A DNA stretch of 64,000 nt from Anaerolineae bacterium (GTDB taxonomy: Bacteria; Chloroflexota; Anaerolineae; DUEN01): the NCBI GenBank assembly GCA_034432955.1, contig DAOUBB010000045.1, forward strand, positions 24,302-88,301, in the 5' to 3' direction. The position numbers and the translations under genes were made by a program. The notes under the pieces are model-generated. The model did not search any database. It saw only the letters and a program-made list of their open reading frames with translations, and had not been told where the DNA came from. Within the stretch, counting starts at the first letter, position 1; the number at the start of each line of letters is the position of its first letter. Positions 1 through 22,465 of this stretch are shown piece after piece.

Positions 1-1104
1 CGCGCCAGAGGGTAAGCCTTCGAGCCGCGAACGGACGACGACGGCCGCGTGAGCCAGTCGCGGCTCATAGATGGCGGTCCAGGGCACATGCTGGTACGTG
101 CGAGCCAGGGCGGTCCACAGCCACTGCGGCAGCTTGCCGCTGAGGACCAGGCCGCGGTCCCTGGGCACCGGGGGCGTGGCTAGCTCTTCCAGCTCGCTGT
201 AGTCTACATAGTGATAAGGCAGGGTGAACTCCAGGCGCGTATGATCTCCCTCAACGAAGGCCACCGCCTGTAAAGGGGAGCGACGGGCGGGCGGGGCGAT
301 GGGGAGGGACGTCGTGACCACCCATCCCAGCCGTGGGTCGAATTGGTAGAAATCGTGCGGGTACGTGTGGCAGGCGATGGCGGCGTACAGCCAGGCAGGC
401 CCGCGCCCATACAGGGAGATCGGCGTGTCCGCAGGCAGATAGGCGAGCACCGCCGGAAGGTGGCCAGGCTGCCACGCTCTGGGATCCACTCGCAGGGTTT
501 CGGCCAGCCGGTTGAGCTCGACCACGATCTCCGTGAGGGCCTGCGACAGGTGGAGGCCACGCAGCTCCTCGGCCGTATAGGCGAAGAGGTTTTCCAGAAG
601 GTTGACGAGCGCATCAAAAGTGTCTCCCGGGCGATATCCCGATCGGTCGAGCCCGGAGATGGTGCCCCGGAGTATGGGATGTTCCGCTTCGATGTGATCT
701 TGCCCCTCGAGCGTGGAGCGGAGGTCCGCGATCACGATCAGGTTGTGGCGCTGGGCCAGGCTGGACCAGAAATCGTGGGTCTCGGCATCACGGCTGAGAA
801 GTATGGCGTGAGTGCAGTGATCGAAAATCTCCTCCTGAGACGGTTGGGGCAGGCCTCCCACGTCCACGAGCATGGGCACAAGGCGGCTCGCGAGGCTCTG
901 GCACATGGCATCCACCCATCTTTGCGTGAAGGGGCCTTTGATGCGAATGGCGCGCACCACCTCTGTATTGGCCTGATACGACCAGTCGCCTTCGCCGTCT
1001 GGTGCCGCGCGCAGCAGATAATGGTCTACCTCGCGGGCGCGCAACTCCTGCGATAGATGATACGCCAGGGTGGACTTGCCACTGTGAGGAGGTCCGCCGA
1101 TCAT
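1..1104 (-). CDS. P-loop NTPase, kinase-like (partial; C-terminus runs off the window start)
   Basis: Checked codon by codon: no reverse-strand stop from 1104 down to 1. ATG at 1104..1102 (alternative in-frame GTG at 1125, preceded by GGGAGGTGA). N-terminus MIGGPPHSGKSTLAYHL is a Walker A motif, followed about 25 aa later by APDGEGDW, a spacing typical of P-loop kinases (APS kinase, PNK, KTI12-like). Absent from the ORF track because it is edge-truncated. The listed + ORF 343..1056 is its antisense shadow. Confidence 0.6.
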   Translation of the reverse strand, partial: MIGGPPHSGKSTLAYHLSQELRAREVDHYLLRAAPDGEGDWSYQANTEVVRAIRIKGPFTQRWVDAMCQSLASRLVPMLVDVGGLPQPSQEEIFDHCTHAILLSRDAETHDFWSSLAQRHNLIVIADLRSTLEGQDHIEAEHPILRGTISGLDRSGYRPGDTFDALVNLLENLFAYTAEELRGLHLSQALTEIVVELNRLAETLRVDPRAWQPGHLPAVLAYLPADTPISLYGRGPAWLYAAIACHTYPHDFYQFDPRLGWVVTTSLPIAPPARRSPLQAVAFVEGDHTRLEFTLPYHYVDYSELEELATPPVPRDRGLVLSGKLPQWLWTALARTYQHVPWTAIYEPRLAHAAVVVRSRLEGLPSGA

Positions 1105-1344
1105 GACAGCGGGTAAGGTGTCCACGGGTCATCACCTCCCGATTTCGCCGTCCGCGGCCGTGACCGCGAACAGCAGGCTGAGCGTGGTTAGTTTTTCACC
1201 CTATCTTCCCAATATCACAAGATGAGTTTTGCCGCGTTGCGTCCTTTTACCAACACGCCTCTGCTGCTCTTCGCCTCTGCGGTGAGAAGGCTTTTGGCAG
1301 GGACTTCCCTTTTTACTCATGAAAGCACACGGGAGGCAGCGAAG

Positions 1345-2229
1345 ATGGCTGTTTCGGCAGTGGAAAGCGTGATGATCGCCACCATTGGCGGCCAGCCCCA
1401 GGTTTTGACTTTCGCCCTGGATGCCCTGCTGGCGCGCGGCGAAGTGGTGCGTGAGGTGATCGTTCTGCACCTGTCGGCGGACGATTCTCGCCTGCGGCGT
1501 TCGCTGGCGCTGTTGAGCGCCGAGTTTGCTGGCGATCGCTATGCCGGGCGTCCTTGTCGGTACCGGCTGGTGCCTATACGCGCGGATGGGCGTCGCCTGG
1601 AGGATATCCGTTCGGAGGTGGACGCGGACGCCGCCTGGCGAGCCGTTCATGAGCTGATTGCCGAGCTGAAGAGCATGAGCGAGCGGCCGCTGCACCTCTG
1701 CATCGCGGGGGGGCGTCGCCTGCTGGCGCTGGTAGCGTTGTCGGCCGCCATGCTGCACTTTGGGCATCAGGATCAGGTGTGGCATATTTACACGCCGCCA
1801 GAGTTTCTGGAGCGGGCGCGGGATGGCGCGATCATGCACGCCCGGCCAGAAGATGGGGTGCGCCTGATCCGGGTGCCGCTGGTGCCGTGGGGCGCTCAAT
1901 TTCCAGCCTTGCGGGAGCTGGCACAGATGCGTCCCGGGGGCCTCGGTAGAGTCGTTGTGAGCTCGGAAATGGAGCGACAGCGCTGTGAGGCTGTGTGGCG
2001 TGCATTGACCGAGCGCGAGCGCGAGGTGTTGCGCTGTTTCGCGGGCGGATTGACGCCGCAAGAGGTGGCGGAGGAGCTGGTGATCTCGTTGAGCACGGTG
2101 AACACCCATAAAACCCGGATTTTGGCGACATGCCGGCAGGTGTGGACGTTGGGCGAGCATGAAAGGTTGACTTATCATTTTCTCCGCGAGCATTTTCATC
2201 CATTCGTCCAGAGCTTATCGAAACTATAG
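1345..2229 (+). CDS. LuxR/GerE-family transcriptional regulator with N-terminal CARF-like Rossmann sensor domain
   Basis: GGGAGG sits 8 nt upstream of the ATG at 1345 (MAVSAV...). C-terminal TEREREVLRCFAGGLTPQEVAEELVISLSTVNTHKTRI is a LuxR-type HTH. The N-terminal beta1-loop VMIATIGGQPQVLTFALDAL, EVIVLHLSADDS and LHLCIAGGRRLLALVA match CARF-domain topology (compare Csm6 VSVHTLGTSPEA / VYVLHT / DLTSGTKAMSAGL). Confidence 0.65.
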   Translation: MAVSAVESVMIATIGGQPQVLTFALDALLARGEVVREVIVLHLSADDSRLRRSLALLSAEFAGDRYAGRPCRYRLVPIRADGRRLEDIRSEVDADAAWRAVHELIAELKSMSERPLHLCIAGGRRLLALVALSAAMLHFGHQDQVWHIYTPPEFLERARDGAIMHARPEDGVRLIRVPLVPWGAQFPALRELAQMRPGGLGRVVVSSEMERQRCEAVWRALTEREREVLRCFAGGLTPQEVAEELVISLSTVNTHKTRILATCRQVWTLGEHERLTYHFLREHFHPFVQSLSKL

Positions 2230-2388
2230 CAAGTTCGGGCGACGGACGCATCAGAGGAGTTGATGATTTTTTTACGATCCGTTTACACCAATGTGACAAC
2301 CCCTTTACGCCGTCCGCCGTCGGTGAGGGATACACTCGATCCGAGCTTGGCGATGGGTGGCCCATACGGGCCACGGGGAGGTCACAGG

Positions 2389-4107
2389 ATGGTGGATGGA
2401 CACTGGCGATCGGCGGGCGCTCCACAACCGGTGGTCGAGGCGTCTGAATCCCTCCAGGTAGCGCAGAACCTGTGTTGGCAGGCCGTGTCCGATTTTCAGG
2501 CCGGCCGCTATGAGGATGCGATCTCGCGCCTCCAGGAAGCGCTTGGCACCCATCCTGGCCTGCATGACGTGCACTTTCTGCTGGGGGCGTGTTATCAGAA
2601 GCTAGGCCGGCTGGAGGAAGCCGCGCGCGAAGCGGAGGTCGAGCTTCAGGCCCATCCGGATCACGTGCTGGCCTGGAGCCTGCTCGGGCAGGTCCGGCTC
2701 AGCCAGGGGCGCATCGCCGAAGCTTCCGCCGCGTTTCAGCGAGTGCAGCAGCTTGAACCGGAGAGCTGGGAAGCTCAATTCCACCTGGACTCTGCTTCCG
2801 AAGCGTCCTTTTCCACGATCCCCCCCGCGCAGTGGCCCTCGGTTTCGGTTTGCATGATCGTGCGCGACGAGGAGACGACGTTGCCCCGTTGTTTGAACTC
2901 TCTGGGCGATCTGGCGAGCCAGCTCGTGGTGGTAGATACCGGCTCTCAAGATCGGACGGTGGAGATCGCTCGCTCCTTTGGCGCTGAGGTCTACTGCTTC
3001 CAATGGGTGGATGATTTCTCGGCGGCTCGCAATGAGTCGCTGCGCTACGCCCGCGGCGAGTGGATCTTCTGGTTGGACGCGGACGATGAGTTGAGCCCGG
3101 AGGCGGTGGCGCAGATCAAGAATGCGATCGCGTCGGGGCAGGCCGACGCGTACGTCTGCCATGTTGCCAGCCGACTGCCGAACGGGACGGAAGACATCGT
3201 CCCGCACACACGGCTGTTCCGGAATGGGCTGGGCATTCGCTTCCACGGTCGCGTTCACGAGTCGGTCTGGGCGGATGTCATCGCCAAGGGGCTCAAGGCG
3301 CTGGATACGGACATCGTGATCGTCCATCACGGGTACGAGGCTGACTGGGCCGTTTTGCGCAGCAAGCACGAGCGGAATCTGGCGTATGTGGAGAAGGAGC
3401 TCGAACGCTATCCGGACAACCCGGGGCTGCTGTGCTATTTCGGCATGGCCAAGATGGGGTTGGGGGATGTCGCTGCGGGCGAAGCGGCCCTGCGTCGGGT
3501 GATCGAGTTGCCGCCCACGGATGTGCGGTTTGACTCGTTCCGGTTTTGGGCTTGGGCCTCCCTGATCCGCCTGTACCTCGCGCGCGGGGAGGATGAGACA
3601 GCCCGGCAGATGGTGAACCGGGCATTGGGGGAATTTCCCGGGCATCCGTATTTTTTGGCGCTGAAGGGGGACATGGCGTTTCGGTCCGGTGAGCTGTCTG
3701 AGGCGTGGTCGCTGTGGCGTGCGGCCTATGAGCGGGATCATGCGCTGGTGTGGGGATATCGTCCGGACCGAAAGTCGCTGGCGTTGGGGATTGCGGCGGG
3801 CTGTGCGATGACAGGAGACAGGATCGAGGAGACGCGGTGGTTTGAGCGGGCGGGACGAGTGGGTGAAGAGGAAGTGAAAGTCTATTTGCAGTTTGTGCCG
3901 CGGCTGATTCGACAGGGGAGGCTGGTGGAGACCCAGAGGGTGCTGGAGGCGGCCCGAGCGCATTGGCCGCGCCACCCGATGGTGTGGAAGGGGCTGGCGC
4001 TGGTGTACGAATATCATGGGCAGGCCAGCGCTGCCCGCGAGGCGTGGATGCGTGCGGCGGAGTGTAGCTTGTCCGGGGAAGAGGTTGCGCCTCACGTGGC
4101 CGCCTGA
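2389..4107 (+). CDS. TPR-repeat protein fused to family 2 glycosyltransferase
   Basis: GGGGAGG sits 7 nt before the ATG at 2389 (MVDGHW...). N-terminal TPR-like repeats. GT2 core VSVCMIVRDEETTLPRCLNSL ... VVDTGSQDRT ... WLDADDEL. C-terminal TPR. Confidence 0.75.
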   Translation: MVDGHWRSAGAPQPVVEASESLQVAQNLCWQAVSDFQAGRYEDAISRLQEALGTHPGLHDVHFLLGACYQKLGRLEEAAREAEVELQAHPDHVLAWSLLGQVRLSQGRIAEASAAFQRVQQLEPESWEAQFHLDSASEASFSTIPPAQWPSVSVCMIVRDEETTLPRCLNSLGDLASQLVVVDTGSQDRTVEIARSFGAEVYCFQWVDDFSAARNESLRYARGEWIFWLDADDELSPEAVAQIKNAIASGQADAYVCHVASRLPNGTEDIVPHTRLFRNGLGIRFHGRVHESVWADVIAKGLKALDTDIVIVHHGYEADWAVLRSKHERNLAYVEKELERYPDNPGLLCYFGMAKMGLGDVAAGEAALRRVIELPPTDVRFDSFRFWAWASLIRLYLARGEDETARQMVNRALGEFPGHPYFLALKGDMAFRSGELSEAWSLWRAAYERDHALVWGYRPDRKSLALGIAAGCAMTGDRIEETRWFERAGRVGEEEVKVYLQFVPRLIRQGRLVETQRVLEAARAHWPRHPMVWKGLALVYEYHGQASAAREAWMRAAECSLSGEEVAPHVAA

Positions 4108-4113
4108 GCCAGT

Positions 4114-7100
4114 GTGGAAGCGCTTTCATGGAGGAGATGCATGGATGAGTGGGAGACGATAAAGGCCCATTATCAGCGTGTGATTCAAGCGGCCTACGCG
4201 CAGCCCGTGTATTCTCATCATACTCGAGCCGCGTTCGAGGCCTGTGAGCATCTGCTTTCGGATCTCGATCTTCGAAACGCGGTGGAATTAGGCTGCGGGA
4301 CAGCCCCGGTTCTGGATTGGCTTGCTCGGCGAAAGGTGCAAACGCTCGGCATTACTCTCGGTAAGGAACCGCTGGCGCATGAATTTCTTCAGCGGGACTT
4401 TCATTTTACCGGGCTACCCGATGCAAGCTTCGACCTTGTAGTGATGCGTCATGCCCTGGAACATTCTCCTATGCCTCTTCTGGCTTTGTTAGAAGTAGCG
4501 CGAATATCTCGCCGATGGGCCCTGATCATCGTCCCATGTGACCATCCATACTGGATTAACTATCCGAATCACTATAGCGTGTTCTCTGATGCTGGGTGGC
4601 GTCGGTTATTTGCTGAGGCCGGGTTTCAGGTTGTCAGATTTGAACGTGGCTCTTTCGCAGAAGGCGCTCCATCTGACATCGACATTGAATGGCGTTACCT
4701 TCTGGAAAAGACTGCCTCTGTGGTTCATGACGATAAGACCCCACTACTAAGCGAAGCCGTAAGACGATGGACGCAAACGCAGGCAAGAGCCCCTCAAGTC
4801 TCTGTGATTACTCCGACCCGAGACCGAGCCCATTTGCTGAACAGATATCTCGAGGCTCTTAGTCGACAGACGGTGGTACCAGGAACCTTCGAAATTATTG
4901 TGATTGATGATGGTTCTACCGATAACACCCCCCAAGTCCTTCAGTCCTGGGAACATTGCTTCGGGCCATTCTTAAAGGTCATCAGGCAAGATAGCAGAGG
5001 CCCCGCTGCAGCGAGGAACGCGGGTATCAATGCGAGTCGGGGGAAGTTGATCATTTTCCTGGACGATGACGTGATCGCCCGGGAATCCCTCGTGGAAGCT
5101 CATCTGAAAGCGCACGAAGAATTTCCTGGCACAGAGGTGGCGTTTCTCGGCCAACTGGTTTGGCCAGATGAGTATCTCCAGGTTGAGCCATTCATGGAAT
5201 ACCAGTCAGCGGCTGGTACGATCATGTTTGACTACCCCAAGTTCCATGATCGCCAGCTTTTGCCATTTCGACACTTCATTACGGCCAACCTCTCCATCAA
5301 GAAGGATTTTCTCGGTGACGAACGCTTTGATGAGCATTTCCCGTATGCCATGATGGAGGATACCGAGCTCGGGTACCGACTTTCCCAGCGTGGCCTTCAA
5401 CTGCGTTACTGCCGTGACGCTGTAGGGTTACATGATTGTCGGCGTACATATTGGACCTTTAGAAACCGTCAGGAGCAATACGGCTTTTCCTTAGGATACT
5501 TAGAGAGTAGATGGGGGGATTTGGCACAGGAGTTAGGCGCTGCAAGCCTTCTCCAGCTCTGGTCAGAGAGCGGTGCCTTACTTCCCTCAATTGAGAACGC
5601 CATTGCTGAGTTGGAAAAGGTCTCGGTCAGAGGGCTAGACGCAAGATTACAGGTCAATGGGCATTCGCTGCAGCAACTCATCTTCCGTTTAAGGGCTCTC
5701 CTCTACGCGACCGCGCTGAATCTTCATATTGCCCGAGGTTACAAGAGGTGGCAGGAAAATCGGCGTTCTGGGAATGGGAATGGATTAAGAGGGAGAGCGT
5801 TTGCGCTCCCCTCCGGCGAGGCACAGTCAGGTGCTATCGAAAAAACCCAGAGTGAGCTCACACCTCTACTCGTTCCGGAAGCCGAGGACCTCATGCGCTT
5901 ACGGCAGCTCCGAGTAGCGCTCATTTACGACAACACGGTCCGGCCAGATACAACCGGAGAATACTGCCGAAGGGCGCTGGAAAGAGCCTGCATGGTAAAG
6001 CACATCCTACCGCAATATCTTAACGCCGTCCGGCCAGAAGACTTCGACCTGTTCTTCCATGTTGATGATGGGCTTAACTACCTCCTTCCACCCCACCTCA
6101 AACCGTCTATCTGGTGGGTTATAGATACCCATCTCCAGTACGAATGGGATGTCCTGAAGGCGCGCCAGTTCGATGCCGTATTTGCAGCGCAGCGTGATGG
6201 CACCGCGCGGTTGCGCTCGGACGGAGTACCAGCCATATGGTTACCGCTTGCGGCCGATCCTCAGGTACACCATCCCGTGGAGCTGCCCGAGAAGTTTGAC
6301 TGGTGCTTCGTGGGTAACCTGACAGAGCATGGGAATCCAATAGGGTTAGAGCGAGCTGCGCTTATTGAGCTGCTCAAGAAGACGTTCCCCAACTATTATG
6401 TGGGCAGGGCCTACGGCGATGATATGTGCCGCGTGTATTCAGCATCGCGAGTGGTCTTTAATCGGAGTGTTCGCAACGATGTGAACATGCGAGTCTTTGA
6501 GGCACTGGCTTGTGGACGGCCACTCCTTACCAATGCGATTGACCAGAACGGCCTGCCAGACCTGCTGATTGAGAACAAAAACTATGTCGCTTATCGTACA
6601 GCCGATGATCTGATAGAAAAGTTGCGGATGCTTTTGTCAGATGACGGATACCGTGTCAATTTGGGCCGATCGGGACGCGAGGCAGTCCTGGCTAAGCATA
6701 CCTATTTCCACCGGATGATGGCGGCCCTGAGCTGGCTGCTCAAGGAGGAAATCGTAAAGCCCAAAGGCAGCTCTTTCTTGGCCATCAAACCTACAGTCAG
6801 CCGCGCCTTTGCCGCATCTTTAAGCCCTCTTGTGAGCATCGTTATCCTTACTCACAACGAACTGAGCTCCACCAAGCAGTGTCTGGCGAGCATCGAAGCG
6901 CACACGTCCCAACCTTATGAGCTCCTCCTCGTGGATAACGGCTCGACCGACGGCACCCTGGATTTCCTGCGCGCCTATGCCGCGACCCGTGATCACGTGC
7001 GCGTCATCACCAACGCAGACAACCGCGGCTTCTCCGCCGGCAATAACCAGGGCCTCTCGCTAGCCAAAGGCGACTACGTGCTCTTGCTCAACAACGATAC

Positions 7101-8325
7101 CATCGTGACCGAAGGCTGGCTGGAACGCATGCTGGCCATCTTCCAGCGATATCCGCAGACCGGCATCGTTGGACCCATGTCCAACTATGTGTCCGGCCCT
7201 CAACTCGTGCCGAACGTCTCCTATAAAACGTTAACCGAGATGGAATCGTTTGCGGCGCAATGGGCAGCCGAGCATGCCGGGCAAAGCACGCAGGTCGCTC
7301 GCGTCGTGGGCTTCTGTCTGTTGGCGCGCCGGGAAGTGATCGAGCGCATCGGCGGGCTGGATGAGCAATTCGGCACAGGTAACTTTGAAGACGACGACTT
7401 CTGTATCCGCGCAGCTTTAGCTGGTTATGAGGTTCGGATTGCCCAAGACGTCTTCATCCACCATACTGGCAGTCAGACCTTCAGGAGCGCCGGGATTGAC
7501 TATCGCCAGAGCATGCAGCGCAACTGGGAGCTGTTCAAAGCTAAGTGGGGAATTCCGGCGGATACTCCTTTAGAGCAAGGGTATCGTGTGCCAAAGGAGT
7601 TGCCAGATCCGTCACGACTCTACGTGCCACTGCCCGATGTCAGCGCCGATCATCAGCTTGATACCAGTGGCCGCTGGTGGGAAGACGTGCGCCTGAGCGA
7701 ACTGCAGGCCACTCAAGAGGCTGTGCATCAGATCCTGGCCCCCGGCCAGGCCGCGCTGGAACGCGGCGACCTCGAAGCGGCTGCGCGCGAGTTCGCTCAG
7801 GTGACCCAACGCTACCCCGACCTGGCCGCCGGCCATACCGCCCTGGGCTCCACCCTCATGGCCCTGGGCCGACCACAGGAGGCGATCCCCGCGCTACGCC
7901 GCGCGGCGGAACTGGTGCCCCAGGCCGCGTCGCTGCAAAACCAGCTCGGCGTCGCGCTCTACCAGACAGGCGACCTGGTCGGAGCAGAGGCGGCCTTCCA
8001 GGCGGCCCGCCAGCTCGCCCCCAACGATGTGCCGGCCGCGCTCAACCTGATTGACCTGTATCGAACGATGGGAGATTATGCCCAAGCGACCGCCGTAGTC
8101 AAGGACGCGCTGCGCCAGCACCCCGATCACTCGGATGTGCTGGCCGCGTTTGGAACCCTGTGTGCCGAGCTGGGGGATGGCGAGGGGGTGGAGATGGCGC
8201 TCCGGCACATCCAGGCTCGCGATCCCCACCACCCGGCCATCGCGTCGCTGCAACAGGTGCTGTTAGCCTCAGACGAGAGCGGAGAAGCCGTAGAGACCCT
8301 CCCGGATACGGAAGAACCCGCTTGA
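4114..8325 (+). CDS. Multidomain glycosylation enzyme (class I SAM methyltransferase - GT2 - GT1-like - GT2 - TPR), 1403 aa
   Basis: Single long ORF. MTase motif LGCGTAPVLDWL. First GT2 VSVITPTRDRAHLL...IIVIDDGSTDNT. GT1-like EALACGRPLLTN. Second GT2 VSIVILTHNELSS...LLLVDNGSTDGT with DxD-containing FEDDDF. C-terminal TPR repeats. GC is visibly lower over 4114..~6800 than over the rest. Confidence 0.75.
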   Translation: MEALSWRRCMDEWETIKAHYQRVIQAAYAQPVYSHHTRAAFEACEHLLSDLDLRNAVELGCGTAPVLDWLARRKVQTLGITLGKEPLAHEFLQRDFHFTGLPDASFDLVVMRHALEHSPMPLLALLEVARISRRWALIIVPCDHPYWINYPNHYSVFSDAGWRRLFAEAGFQVVRFERGSFAEGAPSDIDIEWRYLLEKTASVVHDDKTPLLSEAVRRWTQTQARAPQVSVITPTRDRAHLLNRYLEALSRQTVVPGTFEIIVIDDGSTDNTPQVLQSWEHCFGPFLKVIRQDSRGPAAARNAGINASRGKLIIFLDDDVIARESLVEAHLKAHEEFPGTEVAFLGQLVWPDEYLQVEPFMEYQSAAGTIMFDYPKFHDRQLLPFRHFITANLSIKKDFLGDERFDEHFPYAMMEDTELGYRLSQRGLQLRYCRDAVGLHDCRRTYWTFRNRQEQYGFSLGYLESRWGDLAQELGAASLLQLWSESGALLPSIENAIAELEKVSVRGLDARLQVNGHSLQQLIFRLRALLYATALNLHIARGYKRWQENRRSGNGNGLRGRAFALPSGEAQSGAIEKTQSELTPLLVPEAEDLMRLRQLRVALIYDNTVRPDTTGEYCRRALERACMVKHILPQYLNAVRPEDFDLFFHVDDGLNYLLPPHLKPSIWWVIDTHLQYEWDVLKARQFDAVFAAQRDGTARLRSDGVPAIWLPLAADPQVHHPVELPEKFDWCFVGNLTEHGNPIGLERAALIELLKKTFPNYYVGRAYGDDMCRVYSASRVVFNRSVRNDVNMRVFEALACGRPLLTNAIDQNGLPDLLIENKNYVAYRTADDLIEKLRMLLSDDGYRVNLGRSGREAVLAKHTYFHRMMAALSWLLKEEIVKPKGSSFLAIKPTVSRAFAASLSPLVSIVILTHNELSSTKQCLASIEAHTSQPYELLLVDNGSTDGTLDFLRAYAATRDHVRVITNADNRGFSAGNNQGLSLAKGDYVLLLNNDTIVTEGWLERMLAIFQRYPQTGIVGPMSNYVSGPQLVPNVSYKTLTEMESFAAQWAAEHAGQSTQVARVVGFCLLARREVIERIGGLDEQFGTGNFEDDDFCIRAALAGYEVRIAQDVFIHHTGSQTFRSAGIDYRQSMQRNWELFKAKWGIPADTPLEQGYRVPKELPDPSRLYVPLPDVSADHQLDTSGRWWEDVRLSELQATQEAVHQILAPGQAALERGDLEAAAREFAQVTQRYPDLAAGHTALGSTLMALGRPQEAIPALRRAAELVPQAASLQNQLGVALYQTGDLVGAEAAFQAARQLAPNDVPAALNLIDLYRTMGDYAQATAVVKDALRQHPDHSDVLAAFGTLCAELGDGEGVEMALRHIQARDPHHPAIASLQQVLLASDESGEAVETLPDTEEPA

Positions 8326-10081: not shown

Positions 10082-12583
10082 ATGGATCGGATGATTGCGA
10101 TCAAAGCATTGGCCTTCAGCTTACGCTTTCGGTTGATCGTACTCGTCCTCATCGCCGGACTGCCCGGGATGGGGCTGGCGGTGTACAACGCCAACCAGCA
10201 GATGGAAGAGGCCCGCCACCGGGCGCAAGAACAGATGCTGCACCTGGCCCTTCTGACCGCCGGTGAGCACCAGGCCCTGGTCACCAGCACACGGCAACTG
10301 CTGGCCACGCTGGCCGAACTGCCCGATCTGCGCCCCGGCCGCGGCGGGGACTGCGACGCCCTGCTCGCCCGTCTGCTGGCCATCCACTCGATCTATGCCA
10401 ACTTCGGCGTCGCTAACCTGGCGGGCGACGTCGTTTGCTCTGCCGTACCACTGACCGCGCCCGTGAATGCCTCTGACCGGGCCTGGTTTATCCGCACCCT
10501 GCAAGCCCGCGACTTCGCCGTCGGCGATTACCAGATCGGCCGCATCACCGGCAAAGCGGTCATCGTCTTCGGTTATCCGATCCTGGACGAACGCGGCGAA
10601 ATGGCCGCTGTGGCCTTCGCCGCGCTGGGGTTGGGCTGGTTGGAGCGGCTCACCGAAAGCGCTGCCCTGCCAGAAGAGGCCGTGTACACGGTTGTGGACC
10701 AGCAAGGGGTGATCCTGGCGCGGCATCCGGACGGCGCGGAGTGGATTGGCAAACCCTCGCCGGAGGGTTCCGTCGTCGCTCGCGTGCTGGGCGCGACCGC
10801 CGAAGGCCTGGCCGAAGCCCCGGGCGTGGACGGCGTGACTCGCCTCTACGCCTATGCTCCACTGCTGGCGGGCGGCGCGCCCGCCGCATACGTGATCGTC
10901 GGAATGCCGCTTGCGCAGGCATATGCAGCGGTGAATCGTAGCCTGTGGTGGAACCTGGGCTTCCTGGGGAGCGCGGTCCTGCTGGCGCTGGCCGCGGCGT
11001 GGATCGGCGACGAGGCGTTCCTGCTGCAGCGGATCCATGCCCTGCTGGCCGCCACGCGGCGTATAGCCAGGGGTGACCTGAGCGCCCGCACCGGTGTACG
11101 CTATGGGATGGGTGAACTGAGCCAACTCGCCCGCGCCTTCGACGAGATGGCGGAGAGTCTGGAAAGACAACACCGACAGCGGGAGCGAGCGGAGGTGGCC
11201 TTGCGGGAAAGCCAGCAACGTCTGGCCCATCTGCTTGCCGTCAGCCCGGCTATCATCTACACCCTCAACCCTGACGGTTGCGTGCCCACTTGGATCAGTC
11301 CCAACGTCGCCTTTCGGCTGGGGTACACGCCCGAAGAGGCGTTACAGCCCCGTTGGTGGGCCGATCACCTGCACCCAGAGGATCGCGAGCAAGCCCTGGC
11401 CAGGGCAGCCGGCATATTTGCCGAGGGCCACATGGTGCTTGAGTATCGTTTCTTCAAGAAGGATGGGAAACTGATCTGGGTGCACGATGAGCTCCGGCTC
11501 CTGCGCGATGAGCAGGGCAACCCCCTGGCGATCGTGGGGGCGTGGACCGACATCACCGGGCGTAAGCAGGCCGAGGAGCAACTACGCCTGCAGGCCACCG
11601 CTCTGGAGACGGCCGCGGATGCCATCTTCATCACCGACCGCGACGGGTTCACCCAGTGGGTCAACCCAGCCTTTACCGCCCTCACCGGCTACACGCCCGA
11701 GGAAGCCGTTGGCCAGACCATGCGGCTGCTGAAATCAGGTCAGCACGATCAGGCCTTCTACCAGAACCTGTGGCAGACCCTCCTTAGCGGTCAGGTCTGG
11801 CGCGGCGAGCTCGTCAATCGCCGCAAAGATGGCTCGCTCTATGATGCCGAGGAGATCATCGCCCCGGTGCGGGCGAGCAACAGGGAGATCACCCACTTCG
11901 TGGCCATCCAACGCGACATCACCGAGCGCAAGCGGCTGACGAGACAACTCGCCCAACAGGTAGAAACTCTGACCACCCTTTACCACGGGGCCCGGAAGCT
12001 TGCGGAAAGCCTGGACATGGAGGCCGTGGCTCAAGGAGTGGCCCAATTCTGTGTGGAGAACCTGGGCGTACGTCTGGCCTGGCTGGGCCGCGCCGAAGCA
12101 GACGGCCGCGTGACCCTCATCTCTCAGTTCCCCACCGACCATCCCTACCCGTCCCAGATCACCGTGCGTTGGGATGAGACCCCCCAAGGGCAGGGGCCCA
12201 CCGGCCGCGCCCTCCGCAGCGGCCTTCCAGAGGTCATCGCCGATGTGCTCGCCGACCCAGGCTTCGCCCCCTGGCGCCCCATCGCCGAGCGATACGGATT
12301 CCGAGCAGCGCCGTCTTCCCGCTCATCAGCCGCGGGCACACCTTCGGGACGCTCAACCTGTACAGCGACGTCCCCGGCTTCTTCACCGCCGAGCGGGTGG
12401 AGGCCTTCCAGGCTCTGGCCTACCAGGCGGGGGCGGCCCTGGAGAACGCCCGTCTGTACGCGGACGCGCTGCGCTGCCTCCAGCGGGTGCAGGCCTTGCG
12501 CAACATTGATCTGGCCATCACCGGCAGCCTGGACCCGCGCGTCACCCTGCGCATCCTGCTGGACGAGGTTACCCAGCAACTGA
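10082..12583 (+). CDS. Multi-sensor histidine kinase, N-terminal portion (TM, Cache-like sensor, HAMP, PAS x2, start of GAF); reading frame is lost near 12304
   Basis: TM segment FRLIVLVLIAGLPGMGLAV. HAMP region LLAATRRIARGDLSARTG...FDEMAESLERQH. PAS-like blocks. Translation is recognisable up to ...IAERYGFR and then turns to low-complexity nonsense. See the frameshift finding. Confidence 0.6.
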   Translation: MDRMIAIKALAFSLRFRLIVLVLIAGLPGMGLAVYNANQQMEEARHRAQEQMLHLALLTAGEHQALVTSTRQLLATLAELPDLRPGRGGDCDALLARLLAIHSIYANFGVANLAGDVVCSAVPLTAPVNASDRAWFIRTLQARDFAVGDYQIGRITGKAVIVFGYPILDERGEMAAVAFAALGLGWLERLTESAALPEEAVYTVVDQQGVILARHPDGAEWIGKPSPEGSVVARVLGATAEGLAEAPGVDGVTRLYAYAPLLAGGAPAAYVIVGMPLAQAYAAVNRSLWWNLGFLGSAVLLALAAAWIGDEAFLLQRIHALLAATRRIARGDLSARTGVRYGMGELSQLARAFDEMAESLERQHRQRERAEVALRESQQRLAHLLAVSPAIIYTLNPDGCVPTWISPNVAFRLGYTPEEALQPRWWADHLHPEDREQALARAAGIFAEGHMVLEYRFFKKDGKLIWVHDELRLLRDEQGNPLAIVGAWTDITGRKQAEEQLRLQATALETAADAIFITDRDGFTQWVNPAFTALTGYTPEEAVGQTMRLLKSGQHDQAFYQNLWQTLLSGQVWRGELVNRRKDGSLYDAEEIIAPVRASNREITHFVAIQRDITERKRLTRQLAQQVETLTTLYHGARKLAESLDMEAVAQGVAQFCVENLGVRLAWLGRAEADGRVTLISQFPTDHPYPSQITVRWDETPQGQGPTGRALRSGLPEVIADVLADPGFAPWRPIAERYGFRAAPSSRSSAAGTPSGRSTCTATSPASSPPSGWRPSRLWPTRRGRPWRTPVCTRTRCAASSGCRPCATLIWPSPAAWTRASPCASCWTRLPSN

Positions 12584-13791: not shown

Positions 13792-13794
13792 AAG

Positions 13795-13998
13795 TGGCGC
13801 GGGCTTTAGCCCGCCATGGTGGCGTGGGCTTCAGCCCGCCCTGTGGCGCGGGCTTTAGCCCGCACCTTGCGGCCTGAAGGCCGCGCCACACTTGTGGGGT
13901 GGGCTTCAGCCCGCATGGGCGGCCTGAAGGCCGCGCCACACTCGTGGCGTGGGCTTTAGCCCGCCGTGGAGTAGGCTTGAGCCCGCCTTGCGCCACAA
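13795..13998. repeat. REP array (about 8-9 tandem copies of the 21-bp hairpin repeat GTGGCGYGGGCTTYAGCCCGC, in both orientations)
   Basis: Units separated by 1-5 nt. The reverse-orientation units read GCGGCCTGAAGGCCGCGCCACA. Each unit contains an internal hairpin (GGGCT-TTA-AGCCC). Confidence 0.85.
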
Positions 13999-14010: not shown

Positions 14011-14688
14011 ATGGCTCAAGAAAAACACTACTACCGACGCGATCTACCGCACTACCATCCGGCTGACTCCGTCTTCTTCATCACCTTCCGCCTGGCCAAC
14101 TCCCTGCCCGCTCACATTTGGCAGGAACTTCTTGCTGAACGTGAACGGGAGCGCCGGGAATTGCAAGGGAAGCACTCCGGTGCAGCATATCGGCAGGCGC
14201 TTTACGAGCTAGAAAAGAAACATTTCGGTCGTTTCGACACCTGGCTGGATCGTTGCACAGAGGGCCCACGATGGCTGGCGGAGGAGCGCATCGCCCAGAT
14301 CGTCGCCCATGAGATCCATGCGTTAGATGGTCATCGCTATCATTTGTTGGCATACTGTGTCATGTCGAACCACGTGCATCTCTTGATTGACACCACAGGA
14401 TATGGGCATTCTTCCCCGCCTGGCGCAACGAGCACTGCGTCCTATCCTTTGGCCGAGACCTTGCGACTTCTGAAGGGAAGGACGGCGCGCTATTGCAACC
14501 AGGCCTTGGGGCGCAGTGGCATCTTCTGGCATGATGAAAGTTATGACCATGTTGTGCGCGATGAGGTGGAACTGAGACGCATTGTGTGGTATATTGCGAA
14601 CAACCCAGTGAAGGCTGGTCTGGTGAAAGATTGGAAGGAGTGGAAGTTCACTTTTGTTTCAACGGATATAATGGATTACATGTTCTGA
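14011..14688 (+). CDS. REP-associated tyrosine transposase (RAYT; IS200/IS605-like Y1 HuH transposase)
   Basis: HuH motif SNHVHLLID. C-terminal WHDESYDHVVRDE matches the RAYT W..(Y)(D/E)H.IR(D/N) tyrosine motif. Flanked on both sides by REP arrays. Confidence 0.8.
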   Translation: MAQEKHYYRRDLPHYHPADSVFFITFRLANSLPAHIWQELLAERERERRELQGKHSGAAYRQALYELEKKHFGRFDTWLDRCTEGPRWLAEERIAQIVAHEIHALDGHRYHLLAYCVMSNHVHLLIDTTGYGHSSPPGATSTASYPLAETLRLLKGRTARYCNQALGRSGIFWHDESYDHVVRDEVELRRIVWYIANNPVKAGLVKDWKEWKFTFVSTDIMDYMF

Positions 14689-14906
14689 AGGCCGCGCCGT
14701 GGTGTGGGCTTTAGCCCGCCATGGTGGCGGCGTGGGGTGGGCTTCAGCCCGCATGGGCGGCCTGAAGGCCGCGCCACACTCGTGGGGTGGGCTTCAGCCC
14801 GCCGTGGTGGCGTGGGCTTTAGCCCGCATGGGCGGCCTGAAGGCCGCGCCACATTCGGCCTGAAGGCCGCGCCACAGCCATGTGTGGCCTGAAGGCTGCG
14901 CCACAT
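14687..14906. repeat. REP array (about 9 copies, mixed orientation) downstream of RAYT
   Basis: Same 21-bp unit family as 13795..13998. Starts overlapping the RAYT stop codon. Confidence 0.85.
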
Positions 14907-14922
14907 TCGATCAGGAGGAGAT

Positions 14923-22233: not shown

Positions 22234-22310
<77 letters not shown>

Positions 22311-22311
22311 T

Positions 22312-22386
22312 GCGGGAGTAGCTCAGATGGTAGAGCCTCGGCCTTCCAAGCCGTTGGTCGCGGGTTCGAGTCCCGTCTCCCGCTCC
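22312..22386 (+). tRNA. tRNA-Gly (anticodon TCC)
   Basis: GCGGGAG...CTCCCGC acceptor. Anticodon loop CTTCCAA. GGTTCGAGTCC T-arm. Confidence 0.85.
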
Positions 22387-22392
22387 TGAAAC

Positions 22393-22465
22393 GGGCCCCT
22401 AGCTCAGCGGTTAGAGCGACCGGCTCATAACCGGTTGGCCCTCGGTTCGAATCCGAGGGGGCCCA
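22393..22465 (+). tRNA. tRNA-Met (anticodon CAT; elongator type, could alternatively be tRNA-Ile2/lysidine)
   Basis: GGGCCCC...GGGGCCC acceptor with G1-C72 pair. Anticodon loop CTCATAA. GGTTCGAATCC T-arm. Confidence 0.8.

Follow-up and report, generated by a model that had tools for sequence, protein, structure and literature searches.

A CARF-LuxR regulator and its divergent P-loop-Csx3 partner, a type III-associated gene pair of Chloroflexota, beside glycosyltransferase genes in an Anaerolineae bacterium

A stretch of 64,000 nucleotides from an Anaerolineae bacterium (assembly GCA_034432955.1, contig DAOUBB010000045.1, positions 24,302 to 88,301; this whole stretch is called the window below) begins with two divergent genes. 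One encodes a transcription regulator in which a CARF domain is joined to a LuxR-type helix-turn-helix (HTH; 1345..2229, + strand), and the other a P-loop NTPase with two Csx3 domains (1..1125, - strand). An earlier note on this DNA had presented them as a plausible novel, CRISPR-independent signalling pair. Related loci showed instead that the pair is a conserved Chloroflexota head module of type III CRISPR operons, and not a CRISPR-independent invention. In the window the regulator is followed by a gene for a protein with TPR and family-2 glycosyltransferase domains (TPR-GT2; 2389..4107, + strand; Pfam TPR_19 and Glycos_transf_2). We consider it probable that the window holds an orphaned copy of the module, whose cas cassette was swapped for a TPR-glycosyltransferase cluster.

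Link of the pair to type III operons

When each species was represented by a single genome, relatives of the regulator were detected in 164 genomes. The counts given here rest on the 80 that were kept, all from Chloroflexota (Anaerolineae, Caldilineae, Thermoflexia, Ardenticatenia, Chloroflexus and Roseiflexus). A homolog of the partner was present in 80 of 80 loci, the Chloroflexus loci L027 and L058 among them, and in 77 it was directly adjacent and divergent; the expected co-occurrence of the two genes in related genomes was thus observed. One metagenome-assembled genome (MAG), CAYPOY01, has two such pairs. For the assembly of the window, other homologs known only from NCBI (P0009, P0016) were considered as pointers to a second pair or a cas locus, and they proved to belong to other samples.

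Fifty-five loci had at least 1.5 kb of sequence downstream of the regulator and were informative for gene context, with gene identities taken from clustering of neighboring open reading frames (ORFs) and from NCBIfam. Type III genes followed the regulator in 49 of these (24 III-D-like, 14 III-A and 11 III-B). The downstream genes on the same strand were Csm1/Csm2 in III-A loci, Cmr1/2/4 in III-B loci, and a degenerate Cas10 with Csx10 and TIGR03986 RAMPs in III-D-like loci. The partner family was already catalogued by Shah et al. 2019 as type III accessory cluster 67, 'AAA-Csx3' (Caur_2269, Chloroflexus; PMC6546367). These two lines of evidence assign the pair to the head of type III operons. 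The claimed independence from CRISPR was seen at the window locus only, not genome-wide.

Several further features of the type III loci were observed. In III-D-like operons a conserved first-gene protein of ~420–450 aa lies between the regulator and the degenerate Cas10 (L049 5655..6923; 13 loci), and a representative of it had no Pfam or NCBIfam match. A second conserved first-gene protein, of ~580–630 aa, was found in III-D-like loci L027, L063, L068, L072 and L076. Insertion sequence elements with a DDE_3 transposase separate the regulator from the type III operon in L094 (11282..12446) and L095 (4960..6124), and L095 encodes a second Cas_NE0113 protein (14179..14563) at the far end of the same operon.

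Unlike most of the family, the pair in the window has no type III cas genes as neighbors. No cas family was detected when the 41 other ORFs of the window were scanned with PADLOC, and a tblastn search of the window with cas-cluster proteins collected from the related loci gave nothing. Tandem Repeats Finder by itself is unsuited to CRISPR arrays, so a search for spaced direct repeats was added, which found no CRISPR-like array in the window. The statement of the earlier note that the 64 kb hold no cas gene therefore stands. A public contig with an identical regulator (L001, GCA_964426405.1) covers the 10 kb to the left of the window, where no cas genes were found.

Domains of the regulator and its partner

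The regulator is a protein of 294 aa. Its start codon (ATG at 1345), which is also used by public gene calls, is preceded by GGGAGG 8 nt upstream. The N-terminal domain (residues 1–195; 1345..1929) matched PF09623 (Cas_NE0113) over residues 17–190 with 135.1 bits (cutoff 23; E 3.7e-39). In a Foldseek search with the AlphaFold2 model (mean predicted local distance difference test, pLDDT, 87.9), the top match was the Crn1 ring nuclease Sso2081 (7ygh; E 1e-7, template modelling (TM) score on the target 0.69). The order of matches was Crn1 Sso2081 and Sis0455 (TM on the target 0.64–0.70, E 1e-7), then the CARF domain of Cad1, Csa3 with cyclic tetra-adenylate (cA4), Csm6 and Can2. The best Protein Data Bank matches were mostly CARF proteins, and the remainder were LuxR-type response regulators, matching the HTH. 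Profile and fold both identify the N-terminal domain as a genuine CARF domain, as had been proposed from its strand and loop pattern, and neither search placed it in a non-CARF Rossmann family. All the motifs on which the proposal was built were found in the predicted products (TIGGQP, VIVLHLS and CIAGGRR in the regulator, GGPPHSGKST and DGEGDW in the partner).

The assignment of the C-terminal domain to the LuxR-type HTH was likewise correct. Residues ~218–266 (1996..2142) matched PF00196 (GerE) with 44.9 bits (cutoff 23.5; E 9e-12), the DNA-binding domains of LiaR, VraR and NarL matched at E 5e-10 to 3e-6, and the model has helices at 223–267. The recognition helix, STVNTHK, is encoded at 2092..2112. 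The PF09623 and PF00196 architecture occurs in more than 850 homologous clusters of the regulator.

The loops of the CARF ligand site, T13-x-G-G16-Q-P-Q19 after strand 1 and G122-G123-R-R125 after strand 4, were invariant or nearly so in 22 homologs, with T13, G16, Q19, G122, G123 and R125 invariant, and align with LGTSP and GGRK of Sso2081. The regulator thus shares with the Crn1/Csx14/Cas_NE0113 proteins PF09623, TxG..P after strand 1 and GGR[RK] after strand 4. Ring nucleases of the Crn1/Csx14 type carry a catalytic Ser or Thr after strand 1 and a Lys after strand 4 (residue roles in Sso2081/Crn1-type enzymes: PMC10018336, PMC8284326). These residues are absent from the regulator, where Gln17 takes the place of Ser11 and Arg125 that of Lys106 in a profile alignment to Sso2081 that is weak (E ~0.1) and agrees with the fold match. 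The regulator also falls under the NCBIfam cutoffs for Csx14 (TIGR03642; 43.3 against 90.35 bits) and NE0113 (TIGR02584; 37.1 against 80.65 bits) and, unlike those proteins, has a C-terminal HTH. Because of the two replacements and the HTH, the CARF domain is more likely to be a sensor than a ring nuclease.

Among the closest known parallels is Csa3 of Sulfolobales, a CARF domain with a winged HTH that binds cA4; its structures with cA4 (6wxq, 2wte and 6w11) were among the fold matches of the regulator. Csa3 was described in a 2022 review as the one CARF effector without nuclease function to have been characterized by experiment, a transcription factor (PMC9704534); it is encoded beside cas operons and regulates both cas and non-CRISPR genes (PMC9704534, PMC8699464). 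Like Csa3, the regulator fuses a CARF sensor to a DNA-binding domain. It differs in having a four-helix LuxR/GerE HTH rather than a winged HTH, in a CARF domain of the Cas_NE0113/Crn1-like branch, in being bacterial (Chloroflexota), in its link to type III instead of type I-A systems, and in being always paired with a P-loop-Csx3 gene. Its score against the Csa3 profile (TIGR01884; 17.4 bits, cutoff 60.2) places it outside that family. The LuxR/NarL/FixJ regulators (LuxR, LiaR, VraR) share this family of DNA-binding domain, but their sensors are receiver or autoinducer-binding domains, in contrast to the CARF domain here. A full-text literature search for CARF together with LuxR returned only a general phage-defence review containing both words.

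The partner starts at GTG 1125, preceded by GGGAGGTG. Codons 1–375 of 384 lie in the window, and the final nine codons and the stop are past its left edge (L001 8627..9781). The earlier note had described an unannotated, edge-truncated, kinase-like P-loop protein. The truncation is real, and the P-loop domain does have its nearest folds among GPN-loop/SIMIBI GTPases, MeaB, and adenylate or sugar kinases. The tandem Csx3 tail had been missed, and some public sources already name homologs of the partner Csx3. The order of NTPase and Csx3 is that of cluster 67. In contrast to the 'AAA-Csx3' label, the NTPase did not resemble AAA+ proteins: a profile search gave only sub-threshold P-loop matches, and the nearest folds were not those of AAA+ proteins.

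In an alignment of 24 homologs, the Walker A residues G10, G11, P13, H14, G16, K17 and S18 of GGPPHSGKST (residues 10–19; 1069..1098, - strand) were invariant. So were D43, E45, G46, D47 and W48 of DGEGDW in the homolog alignment (residues 43–48; 982..999, - strand), a family signature of the P-loop domain. Low pLDDT suggests that residues 48–52 form a flexible loop in the model (mean pLDDT 89.8).

The partner scored 80.5 bits against PF09620 (Cas_csx3; cutoff 21) in two stretches, and 64.4 bits against TIGR02579 (cutoff 55.4). Residues 192–283 alone passed the Pfam threshold (22.5 bits), so two Csx3 repeats are present. Repeat 1 (residues ~192–283) is encoded at 277..552 and repeat 2 (residue 286 to the window edge) at 1..270, both on the - strand; the latter was identified by phmmer alignment to AfCsx3 (3wzg/6yud) and by a fold match. 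The C-terminal repeat superposed on AfCsx3 with cA4 at TM 0.87–0.89, with a root-mean-square deviation of 1.1–1.8 A and 31–33% identity. The fold is thus that of AfCsx3 (Crn3), and the partner differs in having two repeats in one chain, a built-in pseudo-dimer.

AfCsx3 depends on two faces, one with H57, H60 and H80 and the second with D69/R71; the three histidines are reported to be conserved throughout the Csx3 family, with H60 essential (PMC7371418). This arrangement of the two faces of the Csx3/Crn3 enzyme was not found in the partner, both of whose repeats are without the three histidines. In repeat 1, Y239, R241, W245, F262, D263, R265, L266, G267 and W268 were invariant; it retains GRGPxW and D263/R265, equivalent to D69/R71, and has no conserved His. 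In repeat 2 the Csx3 fold is complete, with the replacements H57 to R, H60 to Q, D69 to E and H80 to R (numbering of PMC7371418), so that D69/R71 survive in repeat 1 only. Members of the partner family carry R, Q and R in repeat 2 where AfCsx3 has the histidines, and either E or Q in place of D69. Allosteric control of the ATPase by cyclic oligoadenylate (cOA) was proposed for cluster 67 by Shah et al. 2019 (PMC6546367). As judged from these residues, we infer that the tandem Csx3 domains would form a cA4-binding pseudo-dimer without the canonical Mn-dependent chemistry.

Predicted operators and the cas-less loci

Palindromes were found just past the stop codon of the regulator in most loci. 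Palindromes of any kind were barely more frequent there than in the background (6.6 against 4.6 per kb), and the enrichment was confined to specific box families. The box TCAGAG-N4-CTCTGA (at most one mismatch) occurred at 28 sites in 23 of 78 loci, at most 160 nt after the regulator, and once elsewhere (0.001 per kb). Two tandem boxes were present in 15 loci, and in 11 of these a -10 hexamer lay 20–22 nt past box 2, whose center was computed to be near -42. The lux box of LuxR-type regulators is classically centered near -42, a likeness between these loci and LuxR.

The half-site was found to vary with the recognition helix of the regulator. A helix of the form xTxD was paired with TCAGAG in 13 loci and in none with TTGGAA, xTxH with TTGGAA in 9 of 13 loci, and xTxN with ATCAG/CATCA in 21 of 25. 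Such co-variation is expected of a transcription factor and its operator, which argues against a mere RNA hairpin, and the boxes are probably operators of the regulators.

The window regulator belongs to the xTxN class, and the matching box, GCATCAGAGGAGTTGATGAT (CATCA-N7-TGATG), lies at 2248..2267 (+ strand), 19 nt after its stop codon. At the same offset, the 20-mer is identical in the III-D-like locus L004, and differs at one position in L084 and at two in L068. In the window, L084, L090 and L091 the CATCA-N7-TGATG box is invariant despite near-saturated synonymous sites (synonymous divergence, dS, ~0.8).

The window shares its lack of cas genes with two other lineages, L084–86 (85% identity) and L087–92 (82–86%). 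The common layout consists of two ABC genes, the divergent P-loop-Csx3 and CARF-LuxR genes, and TPR-GT2 with further sugar-modifying genes. TPR-GT2 fills the slot of cas10 or cmr genes and directly follows the regulator in L084–86 and L087–92, and the genes past it differ among the three lineages. To the left of the window, L001 carries genes for an FG-GAP protein, DUF123, an oxidoreductase, PhoU and two ABC exporters. The ABC exporter on this flank is common to the nearest cas-bearing relatives, L004 and L005 (III-B), indicating that the locus is orthologous and that the cassette after the regulator was exchanged. Between the window and L084, the ratio of nonsynonymous divergence (dN) to dS was 0.117 for the regulator, 0.110 for the partner and 0.112 for TPR-GT2 (dS 0.75–0.84), and the window pair retains all family-invariant residues. 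The regulator and its partner are under purifying selection in this clade.

Other cas-less contexts were found in L037/L048/L059 and in L093. In L093 a perfect palindrome, ATCAGCAG-AA-CTGCTGAT, lies at 11029..11048, ~45 nt before an ORF of 325 aa without a Pfam match, and the downstream genes include UvdE and VIT1.

TPR-GT2 is likely to be the regulated target, judging from its position: it is co-directional with the regulator and begins 160 bp after it, with the predicted operator between them. Control of the adjacent glycosylation genes, as had been suggested, is therefore plausible, since the box is invariant across the cas-less lineages. The upstream region of TPR-GT2 (2268..2388, + strand) has 87% identity to L084 although dS is ~0.8, and contains a -10-like TACACT (2331..2336) followed by a Shine-Dalgarno sequence, GGGGAGG. 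No convincing promoter emerged upstream of the two paired genes or of TPR-GT2 in a scan for the sigma-70 consensus. The next gene on the same strand (4114..8325) encodes a protein of 1403 aa with methyltransferase, GT2, GT1, GT2 and TPR domains according to Pfam, and is probably in one operon with TPR-GT2.

Three direct repeats of TTTAC[GA] (at 2271, 2282 and 2304; spacing 11 and 22 nt) lie between the box and TACACT. They are invariant in four cas-less sequences, and may be a site for a second regulator. A perfect hairpin, GTGGCCC-ATAC-GGGCCAC (2357..2374), stands directly before the Shine-Dalgarno sequence of TPR-GT2 and is not conserved in the third lineage. The segment 2245..2400 folds well, with a z of -4.7, and comparison with L084 showed no broken pair. 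A structured RNA leader before TPR-GT2 was considered and rejected: the 3' half is unconserved in the third lineage, the segment spans the likely promoter, and it had no Rfam match. A 23-nt direct repeat (1138..1160 and 2300..2322) was also rejected as an element; it is likely to be due to chance, since the first copy is unconserved in L084 and L090.

The genes of the pair are divergent, as had been noted, and the region between them measures 219 bp (1126..1344), not 240. It is poorly conserved (80, 139 and 219 bp in the three cas-less lineages), with only the two ribosome-binding regions conserved. A search of it for an operator found no conserved block and a low density of boxes. In the window ~140 bp (1180..1320) are extra in this region and absent from L084.

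Elsewhere in the window, two arrays of hairpin units of ~25 nt (13794..13990 and 14699..14920), with cores GGGCTTYAGCCC and GGCCTGAAGGCC, surround an ORF of 225 aa (14011..14688) that matched the IS200-like Y1 transposase family (25.9 bits, cutoff 23). Together they look like repetitive extragenic palindromic (REP) elements with a REP-associated tyrosine transposase. Three tandem tRNA genes (22234..22465) were the sole Rfam matches in the window.

Origin and present role of the pair

The results can be accounted for as follows. In the layout that is usual, and taken to be ancestral, the CARF-LuxR gene heads a type III cas operon, and its product would bind palindromic boxes overlapping the -35 region of the cas promoter. 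The CARF domain would sense the cOA made by Cas10, most likely cA4, and the divergent partner would bind the same messenger through its tandem Csx3 pseudo-dimer, coupling it to the P-loop NTPase; this role of the NTPase is putative. In the clade of the window the cas cassette would then have been replaced in place by the TPR-glycosyltransferase cluster, while the regulator, the partner and one box were retained. The pair would now most likely place the glycosylation genes under the control of a nucleotide messenger, whose signal may be supplied by a type III system located elsewhere in the genome or have a different source. Both the binding of DNA at the box and the direction of regulation are what we infer here.

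Several observations weigh against this explanation. No Cas10 or other cyclase was found in the window or in the 10 kb on its left. The catalytic residues of characterized ring nucleases are gone from both proteins (Ser11 to Gln and Lys106 to Arg in the regulator, by weak alignment, and H57, H60 and H80 in the Csx3 repeats), which leaves the biochemical roles of both uncertain. The association of helix and half-site was counted without correction for phylogeny. Finally, the window has a single box, ~65 nt upstream of TACACT, unlike the usual layout with two, and the regulatory logic may therefore have changed.

An alternative is that the signalling of the pair in this clade is truly CRISPR-independent. 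The CARF and Csx3 domains would then respond to a nucleotide from a source other than Cas10, which the P-loop enzyme might itself make or process, and the pair would be a self-contained regulator of envelope glycosylation. The ~74 kb without a cas gene or CRISPR array, the cas-less layout kept by purifying selection in three lineages, the further cas-less contexts of L037/L048/L059 and L093 (in the latter with its perfect box before an unknown gene) and the missing catalytic residues are all in keeping with this. We regard it as unlikely, as 49 of 55 informative loci are joined to type III operons, and the motifs that follow strands 1 and 4 of the CARF domain, like those of Csx3, are identical in cas-linked and cas-less members, which gives no sign of a switch in ligand. 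Moreover, no alternative cyclase is nearby, and type III loci can sit elsewhere in a genome, as the two pairs of CAYPOY01 illustrate. The same tie of the family to type III systems would suit a pair that acts in trans on a type III locus elsewhere, the glycosyltransferase genes being incidental neighbors under their own promoter. The distance of the box from the gene, greater than in the usual layout, and the TTTAC repeats between them, which could serve a different regulator, fit this idea. It is made quite improbable by the invariance of the box directly upstream of TPR-GT2 in three cas-less lineages at dS ~0.8, and by the co-directional arrangement of the regulator and TPR-GT2 only 160 bp apart.

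A decaying remnant of a lost cas operon, with no present function, would explain the missing cas genes and the variable divergent region with its insertion of 140 bp. This was already disfavored and is scarcely credible, because both reading frames are intact, dN/dS is ~0.11 at dS ~0.8 and equal to that of a neighboring housekeeping-type gene, every family-invariant residue is kept, and the arrangement is conserved in three lineages. An orphaned type III module, with its cas cassette exchanged for glycosyltransferase genes, thus remains the explanation that we favor. A fuller version of it is put forward tentatively: in one Chloroflexota clade a cOA module, made up of the CARF-LuxR regulator, the operator and a tandem-Csx3 sensor that is non-catalytic and gates a P-loop NTPase, may have been rewired from a type III operon to glycosylation of the cell envelope. 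If so, the sensing of infection, or a nucleotide signal independent of Cas10, would alter the cell surface, and CARF-LuxR proteins would serve this phylum as the bacterial master regulators of type III cas operons, their operators being predictable from genome sequence.

The Csx3 domains without catalytic histidines put in question the label 'ring nuclease' that public databases assign automatically to some of these proteins. The CARF-LuxR family can be seen as a bacterial counterpart to Csa3. It is widespread (164 species-level genomes), its DNA-binding domain is of another kind, and its predicted operators track the recognition helix, all of which make it directly testable. The cas-less copies, under selection beside their box, point to a possible reuse of CRISPR second-messenger signalling in the control of ordinary genes, here those of surface glycosylation.

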